In this document: positions 6,877 through 20,263 of the stretch, piece by piece | Numbering within the stretch: the first letter of the stretch is position 1 | Layout of the letters: every line of letters starts with the position of its first letter | Assembly (NCBI GenBank): GCA_010093605.1 | Contig: MU004199.1 | Span: 806,001 to 870,000 of the forward strand | Length of the DNA: 64,000 nucleotides | Reading direction: 5' to 3' | Source: Lophium mytilinum | Lineage: Eukaryota | Translations under genes and position numbers: made by a program | The notes under the pieces: generated by a model | What the model was told of the DNA's origin: nothing | Seen by the model: only the letters and a program-made list of their open reading frames with translations | The model's database searches: none

Positions 6877-7826
6877 ATGGCCGATCATGGGGCCGAGTAC
6901 GTGCCACCACCACCGGAAGTGAACGGCCACGATAGTACGTTTTGCAGCGGCCTGTCAAATATATACAAGACTGACCGTACACCACAGAAACCAATTCTGC
7001 CACTGAAAAGGTTCAGAAGCTATGGGTCCTCGAGAGTGGTATGTTGAGGGCGGGCACAGATCCGTACGCAAGACTCTGCACCAAACTATGTCCAGATAGT
7101 ACTCCAAGACTAGACTGACACCTTTGCATAGAAATCGACGAGCTCAAGCCGCGCCCTGAGGAGTCCACTGCATCCCCGGTCCCCTTCTTCCACTTCATCG
7201 AGCGCCTGAAGACAACTAAGCGCGCCGGCTGGGAACGCATGGGCATCATCAAAGGCGAATCAATTAGCGACCACATGTATCGGATGTCTATCATGACCAT
7301 GATGGCTCCTGCATCCGTCACCGACAAGCTCAACATTCCGAGATGCACCAAGATGGCTTTGGTGCACGATATGGCCGAGGCGCTGGTGGGAGACATCACT
7401 CCTGCGGACAAGATCGATAAGGAAGAGAAGTCACGGCGGGAGGAGGAAACAATGGACTACATTTGCACCCGGCTTCTTGGAAAGTTTGGTGTTTTCTCCG
7501 CAGGGGATATTCGCGCGGTCTGGCAGGAGTATGAAGATAGCGAGACGGCGGAGTCCAAGTTCGTGCACGACATCGACAAGATGGAGCTGCTTCTACAGAT
7601 GGTGGAATACGAGCGGAAGTTCGAGTGCAGGCCAGATCTCGGGGAGTTTGCGTGGGTGGCGACCAAGATCCACATGCCAGAGATCAGGCAGTGGGGTAAA
7701 GAGGTTCTAGATGAGAGAATCGCTCTCTGGAAGGCGGCTGGAAAAACACCAAGCTGGCCTCAGAAGCAGCACGAGGAGCCGTTCCTGCAGTGGGCGAAGG
7801 ACATCGGTCTTCCTATATCCTATTAA
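6877..7826 (+). CDS. HD-domain 5'-deoxynucleotidase (HDDC2/YGK1-like), 3 exons
   Basis: LKTTKRAGW, ESISDHMYRM, ALVHDMAEALVGDITP, FVHDIDK; two introns between 6935 and 7130. Confidence 0.9.
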
Positions 7827-13980: not shown

Positions 13981-14565
13981 TTACACAAACGCACGGCCTT
14001 GATACACGCCATTATACCCCTCCACAGGCTCACTCATTTGGTGGAAAACCATTTGCGCAAGCTTCGCATCCCGAAGCAATCGCAAACCGCGAGGATTCAC
14101 CACCTGGAGTACCACACCGATAGCGCCCTTGTAGCCGCTATCCATGACACCAGCATTTATCAGTGCACCGGAGCGAAACAGTGAACTACGTACTAGAATC
14201 TAGCCCATTAGATCCAGAGGCATATCCACAAGTTCATTGAACTCGATGAGGTAGGATCCGCAGCATATATCTACGCATTCGCTGGGGAAATCAATGTTTG
14301 TACCGGGGATTTGCTGGGTACTATTATTGGACGGGAGCACCATCCCAGCTACGGTGCTGCTAGATTTCGAACGAGGCTCAAAGGGGATTTCGTCGGTGTC
14401 AGCGGTTTTGCGGTGCGTGGTATCAAAGTTGATGGTGCCGGACGATGACCATTTCATAACTCGCCTGACCGTAAGGTCGATCCCGCATGGTTGAATTTGA
14501 TGCTCAGCTGAGAGCAAGTGCGTAATAACCTTGCGATTAAGCGCAATCCGACCGCGGACAATCAT
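13981..14565 (-). pseudogene. archaeal-type dUTPase / dCTP-deaminase-family gene with one in-frame TAG
   Basis: QIQPCGIDLT...YLIEFNE...LMG*ILVRSSLFRSG...GVMDSGYKG...AKLAQMVF...GYNGVYQG; the frame continues intact past the TAG at 14200-14202 to TAA at 13981. Confidence 0.85.
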
Positions 14566-15166
14566 CTTGCAGTGATCAGCAATGACTCGGTGCCGATTAC
14601 GTAGGACTGAGCACACCGTTATTCTGTGACTAGACGACGTGTGAGTGAAAGTGGATCATTCAATGCTGCGCCCACAGTTAAGATCTCGGGAGCGGGCATG
14701 GAAGAACCGTGAGGCCGACGGCAGCTGAGTAGTCAGCGAAAATACCTACCTCCTTTTACTTCCTACAATGAAACAAAGAGTGCACTGAAACGTAACTACA
14801 AAGCGCTGCTGAAAGACTAACGATTGAACAAAGGCCAACAACGAACAACCTATCAAAGAATACGATTGAACCATTACCTTGGCTGCAATGCTTATCCAAT
14901 GCATCAACTCCTAGGCCGTAGTATGGCTCAACAGCTGAGCCAGCTTGTATCAAAAGAACGTCACTTCTTGAAGGCCATCCATCGCAGTCTTCATTTCCAC
15001 AATGATTGTATGTTTCCCTTTCACAAAACCTATAAGCTGAAGAAATACTAACATTCTACGTCTAATCACTCAGAACTATCCGTAATGCCTAAAGAATCAC
15101 CCAAGGGCTGCCCTCTTGCCCATTTGAGTGTCTACTCTGAGTTCCTAAGTCTCGAGTTCTAGTAGG

Positions 15167-16228
15167 TTAACTCCAGGGATCAGTGTCTTCGCCGGGAACG
15201 CCGTCGCCATTTTCATTCCTCTGTTGCCACAGCGCCTCCTCGTACTTTGGTTCTATAATTCTAATGACCTCGTCTAGCGCACTTATAAGACCATCGTGAA
15301 TGGCCTCTAAATACTTCCAGTGGTCTCTAGGGTCAAACGGTTGATACTTTTCCGCGATGAACATATTTGGCACACCAAACGCATGCGCAATCCTGTTCCT
15401 TCTTGGCCCCATACTCCACTCAATATTTAGACAATACTTAACAAACAAAGGCGCTTTTATATCGTCTATCCACTCCGTCTTGAGGCTGACTGAATCGTTT
15501 CTGATCGTTTCGTTCAAAATCTTAAGCGCGCTGTCGAGACAGATGAATCGTTGATTCATCGCATCTTTCAGCACCAACTTGAATATTTCTCCGTAGTCAT
15601 CCTCGTCTACTGTGTGTTCAAGGTTTGTATACTTATCTTCATCAAATCGTGCCCAGTTGCTGAGCGTCCTGATCATCTCCAAGTGCATTTTCGCATACTC
15701 GGCCGTCCTCAATACTTTGTTGCACGTCGTATAGTCCACAGGAAGATCTCCCGCTGCAACCGAGACCGCCGCAGTTTGGACATTATTAGAATCTCCAGTC
15801 GCCCAGGAATTAGCACCCGCGAGTCTAGAATCGTTCTGACGAAACATCGATTCCGCGGCTAGTCTATCTTGTCGGATTTGGTATGAGCTAGGAGTTGCTG
15901 AGGTTGTCTGGGTATTGATCACCGAGCTTAGGAGCCGCATATAACCGTCTATGGTATCTCGGAGGTCTTTTACTCCGTCTTGAATTATGCTTCCTTCATC
16001 AGTGTTCCCGACATCTTCGAGGAAGGCGTCCCAGTCTGAGGGAATGGTCTTCTTTACTTTTTCGAATTTCGCCCGGAATGCGTCGAGCTCTAACGGAAGA
16101 TCTCGCACTAGTCGTTGGGTATCTGTCCTTCCTGTCGTTTCTATCAGCTCGTCAATTTCGTCGATCATCTCCTGGACAAATGCAGCAGGCGAACTAAGTC
16201 TCGGCCTGGGGCCTCCCGAGGACGCCAT
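15167..16228 (-). CDS. 353-aa protein: N-terminal helical domain plus putative HEPN (HepT/DUF86-like) ribonuclease domain
   Basis: Intronless ORF; R-x4-H motif RNRIAH at aa 277-282 (15383-15400) within a DUF86-like helix pattern. The CDS is well supported; the domain call is by eye. Confidence 0.65.
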   Translation of the reverse strand: MASSGGPRPRLSSPAAFVQEMIDEIDELIETTGRTDTQRLVRDLPLELDAFRAKFEKVKKTIPSDWDAFLEDVGNTDEGSIIQDGVKDLRDTIDGYMRLLSSVINTQTTSATPSSYQIRQDRLAAESMFRQNDSRLAGANSWATGDSNNVQTAAVSVAAGDLPVDYTTCNKVLRTAEYAKMHLEMIRTLSNWARFDEDKYTNLEHTVDEDDYGEIFKLVLKDAMNQRFICLDSALKILNETIRNDSVSLKTEWIDDIKAPLFVKYCLNIEWSMGPRRNRIAHAFGVPNMFIAEKYQPFDPRDHWKYLEAIHDGLISALDEVIRIIEPKYEEALWQQRNENGDGVPGEDTDPWS

Positions 16229-16639
16229 GTCTCCTAGCTCCGAATCTGTGCGGTAACCGGTTCTGGTGAGTTTACTCTCTTATGTGCCTCCTGAAGATCT
16301 CTCGTTTTTGCTGATAGATATTTAGCGTTCCCGTGCTTCGATGGCGTGTTGAATGTCTGCAATACTATACATATACGTTAGACATAATCACAAAGCAGTG
16401 GACAAAGGTTTAAACCCCAAAACAAAAGCGAGTCGACGAACAATCCATCAAAGACGATTCTCGAACAAAGGACATTTAGAGCCCTATGTGACTTCGACCT
16501 GTCTGCCATAATTTCAATTCTGCCTCCCAGTCTACGAAACTAGAATTGTAGTTTGCTGGCGCTTGGTTCTGAATAGAGTATGACAAAGACCCTAATCCTA
16601 CCCTTTGAACATAAGTGATATTCAGTTTTCAGACTAGCA

Positions 16640-16815
16640 GCCCTCAATAGGCTCTTCAACTCAGAATATGAAGTTAAGTTCCACGCAGTGGAAATAGACT
16701 ACCTTTTGACCAAGCTGATACCTGCTCATTGGGGCACCCCTGACACTGGTGTTGACGGTGCAAGAGTGAAGTCAGAGCATTGAGATATCCATGTGTCTAA
16801 ACCTATGGCCCCGAC
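16640..16815. mobile_element. degenerate copy of the ~215-bp MITE family
   Basis: AAGTTCCACGCAGTGGAAATAGACTACCTTTTGAC and GTGTCTAAACCTATGGCC align with the internal sequence and TIR of the copies at 20264 and 48515. Confidence 0.55.
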
Positions 16816-17123
16816 AAAGACGTAAAGCACCCGAAAACGTAAATGGGGAGACTTTCAGTGGCTTCATGAAGAACATATCGTTCCATGATAGATAAATATC
16901 ACCATCAGGAAGAGTTGCCGCAACATGCTGTCTACTTTCAAGGCATAGCCGCTGTCTCGAATCCCACCCTCATAGAGTGGAGATCCAGCGCGGGATTTCC
17001 GACCTGAGGGTTAAGTGGTGCAGGAGAAGAAGATTCTCGTTCAGCTTAAGCTGGGGTAACGGAGCGGAGTTTGAGTACCGTACTTTCTTTGTGTTTGTTA
17101 GAGGAAAGGAACATAATTGCTCA

Positions 17124-19740
17124 TTAGTGATCGTTCTTTGGGCCCGACCCACGCTTTTCTTCGTCCTCCGTTGTTCTAGCCTTGCGCGACGGTCTCCAAT
17201 GCCTAATCATTCGCAGTTGCCTTCCCAATCCAATCGCGACATATAAGGCAACCCACCACTCCGACGGCGTAGTCTTTGCACGGTCAGGTTTGTAACTACC
17301 AAGCCCCTTTCCGCGATCTTTCCACTTATTGTCTTTTTCTTTCTCCATTGAGGCGAGGACGTCTTTTCGGACTTTCTTGTAGGCTGATTGAATAGCGCCC
17401 ACCAGATTGTTCAGATTCATGACCAATATGTAGGTTCCGAGCGCGACGGCAGCAGTCGTAACAGCAAAGCTGAGCTTATCAAAGCCATCGCTCATGCTCC
17501 AGAGGGCCACGCAAAACCCGAGTGGCAGGAAGAAGATAGTGACGTATGTGAGCAGCTTTACGTTCTCTGCTAGGCGAGTGGCTTCCCGGGCTTCAATAAC
17601 GCTGCTGGCGTTGAACAACTGTATTATCATATGTTAGCTTGGTGTAACAAGTGTAGGGAGACTTGGGCGTACGCCGTCCCGCAATGCGATTGCTCTACTG
17701 TGTAGATCTACAAATCGGGCGTGAAGATCGCGCAGCCGGTGACATTGAAAATCCACGTCTCGCGAGGACTCTTCAATTGTCACGTGCTCTCCCATTACTG
17801 TGCCATCACTGTCGAGTTGCTGTGTGCCAAATTTTGTCGTCATCTGATCTTGTAAAGCTTGAAGCTCGCTCTCTTTGGCGCTCCAGAAAAAAACCCACTG
17901 GTTGATGGCATCCTGGATCTGTGTTTGGAAGAGCACAATGCTATCCACATACCAAAAGTAGAGCCGCGACCTCGAGAAGGTCTCATCGTCAAACAAGAGC
18001 TGGTCGTGCGCCTCGGGATCAAGGATGGAGCTTTGCAGGCTGCGATCGAGATACATAACGATTACTTCCCAGGCATCTGCTGCGCCGCGAAGACCCTCAG
18101 CTATTATCCGCAAAAATGTGCTCGGATGGCCATCCGGATCCTCTATTTCGAAAGTTGCAGGACTCAACAGGACACCTGTCCAGTGAGGAGTTGACAAGGG
18201 ATTCTCATCTACTTGGGATAAGCCATCATCGATTGCCTGAGCGTCATCAATTCCTATTTGGAACGTAAACGCGGTCTGTTGGATGAACAGATCGTCAGTG
18301 CCATATAATTGCCCAGACTTCCAGGTCGACTCCCTCCAAAGCGGATCCTCGGGGTCCACCACCCGGTGATAAACAACATGAAAAGTTGGAGGAGTGACGT
18401 GATCCGAGTCGTCTATACCCACCATGGCGATTTGAAAAATGTCATCATGGGGCATATAAGGATTTTGCAGGGGCCGTGGGTAGCAATACAGATGCAGCCC
18501 GAAAGCCCACTTTGCGTCGTAAAAGCTACCAGTTTTGGTGAAAAAGAGCTCCCAAACTTTATCTATATTCTTGTGCTCCAGTTCTTCCGCGGAGAGCACG
18601 CTAGTGACCGCAGATGCGAGGTTTTGGATGTGGATCAATCGATGCCATGGTGAACTAGAGTGAGTTTCGATGACGCGCGCCCACCCGTCCTCCCCGTTGC
18701 ATTTCAAAAGCTTAACGCGCGACGGGTCAATCGTCAGCCATTGTTCCTCAGCATCAAGAGCAGGCCTGAAGTCTGGAACAGAAGAAGGCAGATCGTATGT
18801 AGCGGAAGAACCAAAATCATCCATGTCTGTAATCTCGAATGATCCCCCAGCTTGGTCCAATTTTTCGAAAAGCGATTTTGCTTTTCCCAGGTAGACCGTA
18901 GCCTTTTCCTTTGTATAATCCGCAAGGATGGACCTCTCGAAGGCTAGAGTGTATCTACAGTCGAAGGGAATCGTCCACAGCGGGCCGAGCACAGCTCGAA
19001 GCTTTTCCTGATCAACGGGTAAAGGATTCGCTCCGTAGTTGTTATGATGAGATCGTACGAAAGAGTAGGGCACACTTCGAACCGTTCTACTATCATCCCA
19101 TAATGGGTTAACGGGGAAGTCTCCATTGGTATCGTCCAGGTGATACCAGCGTCCATTCAATTGTTTGAGTTCCCACTCGGGCACATAATCTGGCCGCCCA
19201 ATAGCAAGAGGAAAGAAGTTCTTCCAATGTTTCGGAGACTTCCCTATTGGCCTCCCTGTACAAATATTAGCAAGGTGAATTGGACGTGATAGCTAGTAGA
19301 ACGAACTGTAACGATTACATACAGTACATCCAATCGGGCCCCGCTACTGTACCAAAATTCGGCTGCGAGGTAGATAATGGACTGAAATTGTGCCCAGGAG
19401 CGTAGCTTATGGGAAAGGGGGCCTTCTTAGGGCACTCTAGGGGGACATAGAAGGTAGATTGCGGTGCAGGGAAGCCTAGCTCTGCACATTTCCAATTTTT
19501 GCGTTCACAGAAAGTGGTCTCGTCGTCATTCTCGATGAACCGCTTGGGAGTTTCGATGCTAGTAATAGCCCCCGTAGGGCGTGGTTCAGCAGGCAATTCT
19601 GAAAGCAAATTGTGTGCCCCAGCTGCGTAGGAATTTTTCAGCTCTTGCAGAGTATTTCCCTGGTCCTTCAGGCAATCTCGGATTTCCTTCAAAACAGCCA
19701 GTATTTCATTCTGAGCCAAATGTGGCACCTGCTCCACCAT
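17124..19740 (-). CDS. fungal CorA-like (Mg2+-transporter-like C-terminal 2-TM) protein, 3 exons
   Basis: Introns about 19257-19323 and 17620-17670 join three ORFs in frame; LLFDDETFSRSRLYFW, LFNASSVIEA...NVKLLTYVTIFFLPLGFCVALWSM. Confidence 0.8.
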
Positions 19741-20263
19741 GACTCGGTATGATGCACGGACAATACTTAAGTAGGATATAGCGCGAGTTAAAAGGCAATG
19801 GAGAGAAGGCTACTTAGCTTGGGGATTACGATTATAAGTACTTGTGTGTTGGCAGTGCCAAGGAGAAACTTGGGTTAGACTCTGACCTCAAGTGCTCGTC
19901 AGCTCCGATAAAATGCGCCCATGCAAGGATAAGTCGCTACACCCTGAAGAACATAGCAATCCCTGGAGGTTCATCGTCGATCTGAACTGTTGCGCTAAAA
20001 TCCACCAAAAGGCCCAACTTAGGACTCTCAAACCTGATTGCAAAACGATTTACGCCTTCGGAGTGGTAGATTGTTTTTTACATCATGGTCGGGTTATAAT
20101 CGTACACCACGTTTCCGAGAATCATGAGGAGTAGATAAGTCCACATATGAGGTCAAGGTCCGAAGAGCTTCGAACGATTATTTTAGTTTCAAATCCAACT
20201 CCCAGACTCCCTGTCTGAACATACCAAACATAAGAGACCGATACGTAGCAACCCTTTGCATTA

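Follow-up and report, generated by a model that had tools for sequence, protein, structure and literature searches.

HEPN domains, as set out in the sections of PMC3710099 drawn on here, are four-helix up-down bundles of two alpha-hairpins, in which helix 3 ends, ahead of the loop, in an Rx4-6H motif with a polar residue (N/D/H) after the arginine, and helix 2 carries a conserved acidic residue, typically as Ex3[KR]. According to the same sections, eukaryotic lineages have time and again gained and expanded HEPN domains, and the families found in them include the KEN domain of Ire1 and RNase L, Las1, Swt1, C6orf70, sacsin and others. Two described families close to the locus reported here are HepT/DUF86 of the HepT-MntA (HEPN-MNT) systems (PF01934; structures 7ae6, 7ae8 and 7ae9) and RiboL-PSP-HEPN (PF18735). 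HepT proteins carry their elements in a set order, namely a DA..R/IGEA helix, a W, RNxxxH, D...W and a terminal amphipathic helix, an order that a preliminary description of the locus had given and that we found to be correct on fetched HepT sequences.

That description concerned a stretch of 64,000 nucleotides from Lophium mytilinum (contig MU004199.1, positions 806,001 to 870,000; the window), and in it an intronless frame of 353 residues at 15167..16228, encoding a putative HepT/DUF86-like ribonuclease. The coding sequence (353 residues plus stop, no intron) is as described and lies on the minus strand, which had been left unstated; the protein contains all of the peptide strings quoted from it, and R277 and H282 had been numbered correctly. 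The candidate is a real gene. Its frame is uninterrupted for 370 codons from stop to stop, 353 of them counted from the first ATG, and the chance expectation for an open frame this long, calculated from the base composition of the window, is ~0.009 across six frames. A Mytilinidion resinicola 'uncharacterized protein' of 364 residues (P0002) is a collinear orthologue, with 69% identity end to end, the same starting methionine and an alignment without sign of an intron. Because this orthologue aligns over its full length and so long a frame is hardly expected by chance, the intronless model is supported. The GC3 of the gene (0.52) falls inside the range spanned by neighbouring genes (0.48-0.71). 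A sequencing run of uncertain kind (X1) gave contigs at 14000-14634 (depth 114), 15074-15282 (depth 3.3) and 16880-17000, the second of which spans the stop codon of the candidate, with the remainder of the gene uncovered in this run; this coverage does not bear on expression.

The protein is known so far, on the basis of homologue searches, from L. mytilinum, M. resinicola and one fragment, and thus appears to be lineage-restricted. An exhaustive phmmer search of 1.84 billion cluster representatives at E<=0.001 returned three proteins: the query, a repeat protein (P0003) and a fragment (P0004). The fragment, of 139 residues, is 41% identical over residues 168-245 and ends before the motif. 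The bacterial repeat protein was rejected as spurious, its match being confined to residues 130-171 of the S/T/A-rich linker. A word-index search recovered the M. resinicola orthologue only, and a profile search gave no members beyond those from phmmer. No match was confirmed among the four candidates of a shorter-protein search with residues 165-340, or among the 349 pattern matches of an alignment-based metagenome scan, and a metagenome scan for the pattern EWSMGPRRNR gave zero matches. The known family is therefore three sequences, two of which cover the motif.

The protein can be divided into three regions. Residues 1-110 (15899..16228, minus strand) form an N-terminal region of low-confidence predicted helices (14-34, 37-61, 66-73 and 77-108); this region contains the longest block identical between the candidate and its orthologue (residues 35-56) and has no match in Pfam, NCBIfam, PADLOC, PHROGs or PDB. 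Residues 111-164 (15737..15898, minus strand) are rich in S, T, A, Q and N and are modelled at pLDDT 29-47; the matches of this stretch, to the repeat protein and to a flagellin (E 0.46), are low-complexity artefacts that we rejected. Residues 165-345 (15194..15736, minus strand) form the candidate HEPN-like domain, as delimited from the AlphaFold2 (AF2) model, fold searches and ESM Atlas neighbours. 

The following sequence features lie in this last region. The motif RNRIAHAF, running from R277 through H282 to F284 (15377..15400, minus strand), is of the Rx4H type with N after R, and R277-N278-x3-H282 fits the definition given in the sections of PMC3710099 cited above, Rx4-6H with a polar residue after the arginine, in the candidate and in its orthologue alike. 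The orthologue reads RNRLAHAY, differing at I/L and F/Y alone. The preliminary description had asked whether R277 and H282 are conserved, and both are kept in this orthologue, the one other sequence that covers the motif. Residues 266-279 (CLNIEWSMGPRRNR, 14 residues up to R279) are identical in the two proteins, and no other block in the C-terminal half is fully conserved over so great a length. A further block, LKDAMNQRFICL (residues 220-231; 15536..15571, minus strand), is identical in the orthologue and mostly retained in fragment P0004. Within it, D222 is unchanged in all three known sequences and is a candidate for the helix-2 acidic residue. Compared with the Ex3[KR] form, E240-x2-R243 is Ex2R, with E240 replaced by G in the fragment, which counts against a HEPN domain, and D232-x3-K236 has H in the M. 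resinicola orthologue.

Structure prediction was run on the three-row alignment, from which HEPN sequences were deliberately withheld because adding them would have imposed the fold. The full-length AF2 model (pLDDT 45) was too poor for structure searching. Residues 165-345 (pLDDT 59, pTM 0.54) gave a low-confidence prediction of an up-down bundle of four helices: three helices (166-194, 212-243 and 248-266), then the short motif-bearing helix 276-283, a loop, and a last helix (300-339). In this model the motif falls after helix 3 and before the loop to helix 4, in a stretch of pLDDT 49-55; the shortness of its helix, bordered by G-P and G-V-P, counts against a HEPN domain. The modelled domain agrees with the HEPN arrangement outlined in those sections of PMC3710099, though not specifically. 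Foldseek searches with this model returned nothing at E<=0.001 against PDB or BFVD; its best structural matches are generic four-helix bundles, and the HEPN toxin 7ae6_A stands at rank 2 in PDB (E 0.62, prob 0.63, TM 0.38/0.44). A homodimer with a composite active site is typical of HEPN RNases. A homodimer prediction for residues 165-345 scored 0.00, below the mark of 0.32, but the fold of the partner was itself uncertain, and the result counts neither for nor against a dimer.

Protein language-model neighbours in the ESM Atlas, where scores under 0.9 were taken as leads only, point to HEPN. For the whole protein, the neighbour ranked first is a cluster from archaea, 'putative RiboL-PSP-HEPN' (0.81). 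For residues 165-345, eight of the ten named clusters among the matches listed are HEPN families, all at 0.80-0.83: Csm6 HEPN (0.83), RiboL-PSP-HEPN (0.83, 0.82 and 0.80), RnlA/LsoA HEPN (0.82, 0.82 and 0.81) and Cas13a (0.81). A HepT-like cluster also appears among the structure neighbours of the Atlas's own model (TM 0.48/0.54). This signal may depend on the same motif; still, of the independent hints at the idea put forward in the preliminary description, none is better than this concurrence of four kinds of HEPN family.

The family libraries gave no direct match. Pfam at E<=10 returned no HEPN-clan or other significant family for the whole protein, two sub-ranges or the orthologue, and NCBIfam, PADLOC, PHROGs and PDB, the last searched by sequence and by profile, gave no HEPN match. 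For PF01934, which has a curated cut-off of 23.5 bits, there was no row at E<=10 for any of these four queries; a HepT HMM built here (HMMER --max) scored 3.7 bits for the candidate and 12.1 bits for the orthologue.

The candidate shares several elements with HepT. The motif is of the RN[RK][IL]AHA[YF] form, and the RX4HXY motif of HepT is matched by the orthologue in full and by the candidate with F284 in place of Y. A W stands a few residues upstream of the motif, D...W follows it and an amphipathic helix ends the domain, which is predicted all-helical and finds 7ae6_A at Foldseek rank 2. The collinearity noted in the preliminary description is thus present as an order of elements, but the spacing is off, with 13 extra residues before the W and 11 between AHAF and D..HW in the hhalign alignment. 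The domain also differs from HepT in its size (~180 residues versus ~120), in much longer helices and in a 164-residue N-terminal extension, and the gene is eukaryotic, monocistronic and without an MNT neighbour.

We asked how much of the likeness lies outside the octapeptide. A profile of 23 HepT sequences, against which the family reached Prob 87%, was rejected as circular, 13 of the 23 having been chosen for the exact octapeptide; against it the real alignment scored 37.7 and column shuffles 38.0 +/- 2.6, with 71 of 150 shuffles reaching the real score. An unbiased profile was built from 38 sequences, with HepT genes found in 66 genomes by means of the Pfam model and carriers of the exact octapeptide excluded. 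With hhalign, the fungal C-terminal alignment (residues 160-345) matched this profile at Prob 52% and a score of 29.8 over 46 columns; these include the last helix as well as IEW, the motif and D..HW. When all but the eight motif columns were shuffled, the scores came to 27.0 +/- 2.8, with 29.8 reached in 21 of 150 shuffles. In HMMER with filters off, the candidate's 3.7 bits compare with 3.0 +/- 2.4 for motif-keeping shuffles, 146 of 500 of which reached the real score. As a true negative we used the AAA+ N-terminus of DnaX clamp loaders, which carries the same octapeptide; it scored 31.2 against the unbiased profile (Prob 62.8%), and a three-sequence version of this control scored 28.5. Because motif-only shuffles and the DnaX control score alike, the collinear W, D...W and terminal helix give no measurable support. 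The HepT/DUF86-like assignment does not hold up as membership in PF01934, given the missing family match and flanks that align no better than shuffles.

The octapeptide has a wider distribution of its own. A scan of prokaryote genomes for RN[RS]IAHA[FY] gave 120 loci, of which 63 are DnaX-type DNA polymerase III clamp loaders (PF13177 and PF22608 confirmed on both of two tested), 13 are HepT (PF01934 confirmed on all three tested) and 44 are other frames, mostly short. Since clamp loaders outnumber HepT by 63 to 13, the octapeptide alone is not diagnostic. In the 63 clamp loaders, a conserved RNRIAHAY immediately precedes the Walker A loop, and many of the contigs that carry it are labelled Opitutaceae, Verrucomicrobiota or Bacteroidota. 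The DnaX octapeptide is a ready false-positive trap for motif-based HEPN or HepT calls.

Profile comparison has little power between HEPN families. RiboL-PSP-HEPN (24 sequences) matched the HepT profile at Prob 10.5% and a score of 23.5, against 17.7 +/- 1.1 for its own motif-keeping shuffles, none of 60 reaching the real score. Because two accepted families reach just Prob 10.5%, profile methods are nearly blind at this distance, and a negative profile result therefore counts much more against HepT membership than against a HEPN fold. Against the RiboL-PSP-HEPN profile, the fungal family scored 25.6 over 13 columns (SMGPRRNRIAHAF) at Prob 16%, and only three of 100 motif-keeping shuffles (20.3 +/- 1.9) reached this score. 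RiboL-PSP-HEPN also resembles the fungal domain in its length (~185-220 residues), the placement of the motif ~two thirds along, a long last helix and its prominence in the ESM Atlas, as first neighbour of the whole protein and in three of the ten domain rows among the matches listed; RRNxIAH, which compares with the fungal RRNRIAH, occurs in four of 25 fetched members. The differences are an alignment of just 13 columns that exceeds the shuffles at low probability, no Pfam match and no RiboL-PSP domain in the candidate.

The gene sits in ordinary fungal core genome. The window also encodes N-acetylglutamate synthase, HAUS6, an HD-domain nucleotidase, a Gpr1/Fun34/YaaH transporter, a lysine methyltransferase, a metallo-beta-lactamase-fold protein, a fungal transcription factor, a RING protein and Rrn11. 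The preliminary description had seen no MNT-type antitoxin nearby, and indeed none of the 61 stop-to-stop ORFs of at least 75 codons in 9000-22500 matches a nucleotidyltransferase (MNT) family at E<=0.001; the same is true of 33 larger ORFs elsewhere in the window, and smaller or heavily spliced genes could escape either search. The next gene downstream, in the same orientation at a distance of 601 bp, is a DCD-family dUTPase homologue (13984-14565, minus strand), an enzyme type unusual for fungi. Read through with X, its frame matches Pfam DCD (1.8e-18), NCBIfam NF002598, 'deoxyuridine 5'-triphosphate nucleotidohydrolase' (1.5e-35, 122 bits; cut-off 130), and PDB 9w59, 'probable dUTPase' (9e-25), a type of homologue named in prokaryote libraries. 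The frame is broken by a single in-frame TAG (14200-14202), which is a nonsense mutation or the mark of a pseudogene rather than an intron, because the family model runs straight through it. Nor is the TAG peculiar to the assembly, since the X1 contig at 14000-14634 shows no differences, though X1 possibly comes from the same strain.

Upstream, at 17124-19292 (minus strand), an open frame of 552 codons is followed directly in frame by one of 169 codons that has a hydrophobic stretch (…YVTIFFLPLGFCVALW…) and a basic tail. The two frames have no Pfam or NCBIfam family above threshold and a lone weak FUN14 match (E 0.003), and may represent another lineage-restricted gene. GC is 0.475-0.49 across 14001-20000, a stretch that takes in the candidate, the dUTPase-like pseudogene and the upstream gene without a family, versus 0.53-0.56 in the flanking 10-14 kb and 20-22 kb. 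An HD-domain protein (7119-7823, plus strand; Pfam HD_3 1.7e-52, YfbR-like 5'-deoxynucleotidase 1e-09) lies ~6 kb from the dUTPase-like gene, and the presence of two nucleotide-pool enzymes in one neighbourhood is probably a coincidence.

We consider a divergent stand-alone HEPN-type RNase to be the single most likely mechanism, unproven and, in our estimate, somewhat short of an even chance. The conserved R-N-x3-H-x-[FY] motif, the topology of the model, the language-model neighbours and the weak structural echoes of HEPN favour it; the lack of statistics beyond the motif, the DnaX false positive and low-confidence models of a generic bundle count against it. The available analyses neither confirm nor exclude that the candidate is an RNA-cutting HEPN enzyme, and it is by inference that we speak of a HEPN fold, of catalysis and dimerisation, and of any part in conflict or stress. 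Under this mechanism, the C-terminal ~180 residues would be a very divergent HEPN-type four-helix domain, in which R277, N278 and H282 would sit at the distorted terminus of helix 3, ahead of the loop leading into helix 4, and would make up a metal-independent RNase site such as has been described in HEPN proteins. The histidine would activate the 2'-OH and the arginine would stabilise the transition state, giving a product with a 2',3'-cyclic phosphate, and the invariant D222 in helix 2 could be an auxiliary acidic residue. The N-terminal helical region of ~110 residues and the S/T-rich linker may control activity or partner binding, and would stand in for the separate MNT antitoxin of bacterial HepT systems. 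A bolder version, which we think unlikely, is that this protein is the first of a new HEPN family restricted to fungi, an antitoxin-free stand-alone RNase effector that is restrained in cis by a novel N-terminal helical module and freed in stress, mycovirus infection or non-self encounters, and that may have arrived with the neighbouring prokaryote-type dUTPase gene.

Almost as much weight, again less than even, goes to a protein that has no relation to HEPN, namely a helical-bundle or coiled-coil protein specific to the lineage (such as a scaffold, adaptor or regulator), in which RNRIAHAF is a chance or convergent, non-catalytic sequence. Such a protein would account for a sequence-profile signal that reduces wholly to an octapeptide also conserved in DnaX clamp loaders, which obtain equal HepT-profile scores; it would fit the generic four-helix bundles among the best structural matches, the absence of a family match in any library searched and a setting of ordinary housekeeping genes rather than a conflict or NLR cluster. 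Against it stand a motif that has every HEPN hallmark (R, a polar N, a four-residue spacer, H and an aromatic at +2), that belongs to the best-conserved block of the C-terminal part and that is placed in the topology as a HEPN motif should be, as well as the HEPN toxin at Foldseek rank 2 and the eight HEPN clusters, of four kinds, out of ten language-model neighbours among the matches listed. A further reading, a HEPN-derived fold that has lost RNA cleavage, as has happened in some HEPN families, and now acts in binding or regulation, would suit a gene among housekeeping genes with no toxin-neutralising partner visible, and the sections of PMC3710099 drawn on here describe inactive eukaryotic versions such as the Swt1 dyad. 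According to the same sections, however, such domains usually lose the Rx4-6H motif, and with R, N and H intact and conserved here we regard this reading as very unlikely.

The least probable reading, to which we give only a slim chance, is a subset of the HEPN RNase mechanism: a true HepT/DUF86 (PF01934) member, horizontally acquired and enlarged by insertions and the N-terminal extension. Its attractions are the collinear elements, over which hhalign aligns 46-67 columns (ILNET/IGEA, W, motif, D..W and terminal helix), the RNRLAHAY of the orthologue, and a prokaryote-type DCD-family dUTPase homologue as the next downstream gene. These are set against the empty PF01934 search at E<=10, flanks that add nothing over shuffles, the lack of a prokaryotic relative among the 1.84 billion representatives searched by phmmer, the lack of an MNT partner among the ORFs searched, and a GC3 that is unremarkable beside its neighbours. 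The candidate also has F284 at the position of the Y of RX4HXY, which we take to be the residue AMPylated in HepT systems.

Like the KEN domain, Las1, Swt1, C6orf70 and sacsin, as covered in those sections of PMC3710099, the candidate is a eukaryotic protein with Rx4-6H in a helical domain. Unlike them, it is a stand-alone orphan in a few Dothideomycete-like sequences rather than a conserved core-function gene, and it has no sequence match to these families in Pfam at E<=10. Among the matches listed in a full-text literature search, there was no stand-alone HepT-like HEPN protein in fungi, although the supplementary family lists of PMC3710099 could hold fungal entries.

With three sequences known, this orphan gene has only limited wider biological importance at present. 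Should the HEPN reading be wrong, it is an ordinary orphan gene and a warning that a perfect HepT-like octapeptide, collinear residues and hhalign probabilities of 52-87% can stem from a motif alone, as the DnaX control shows to be possible. If the HEPN reading is true, filamentous fungi would have a previously unrecognised HEPN family with its own self-control, a new family within a known superfamily, and the protein would add to the evidence that eukaryotes have repeatedly adopted RNase effectors from prokaryotic conflict systems.
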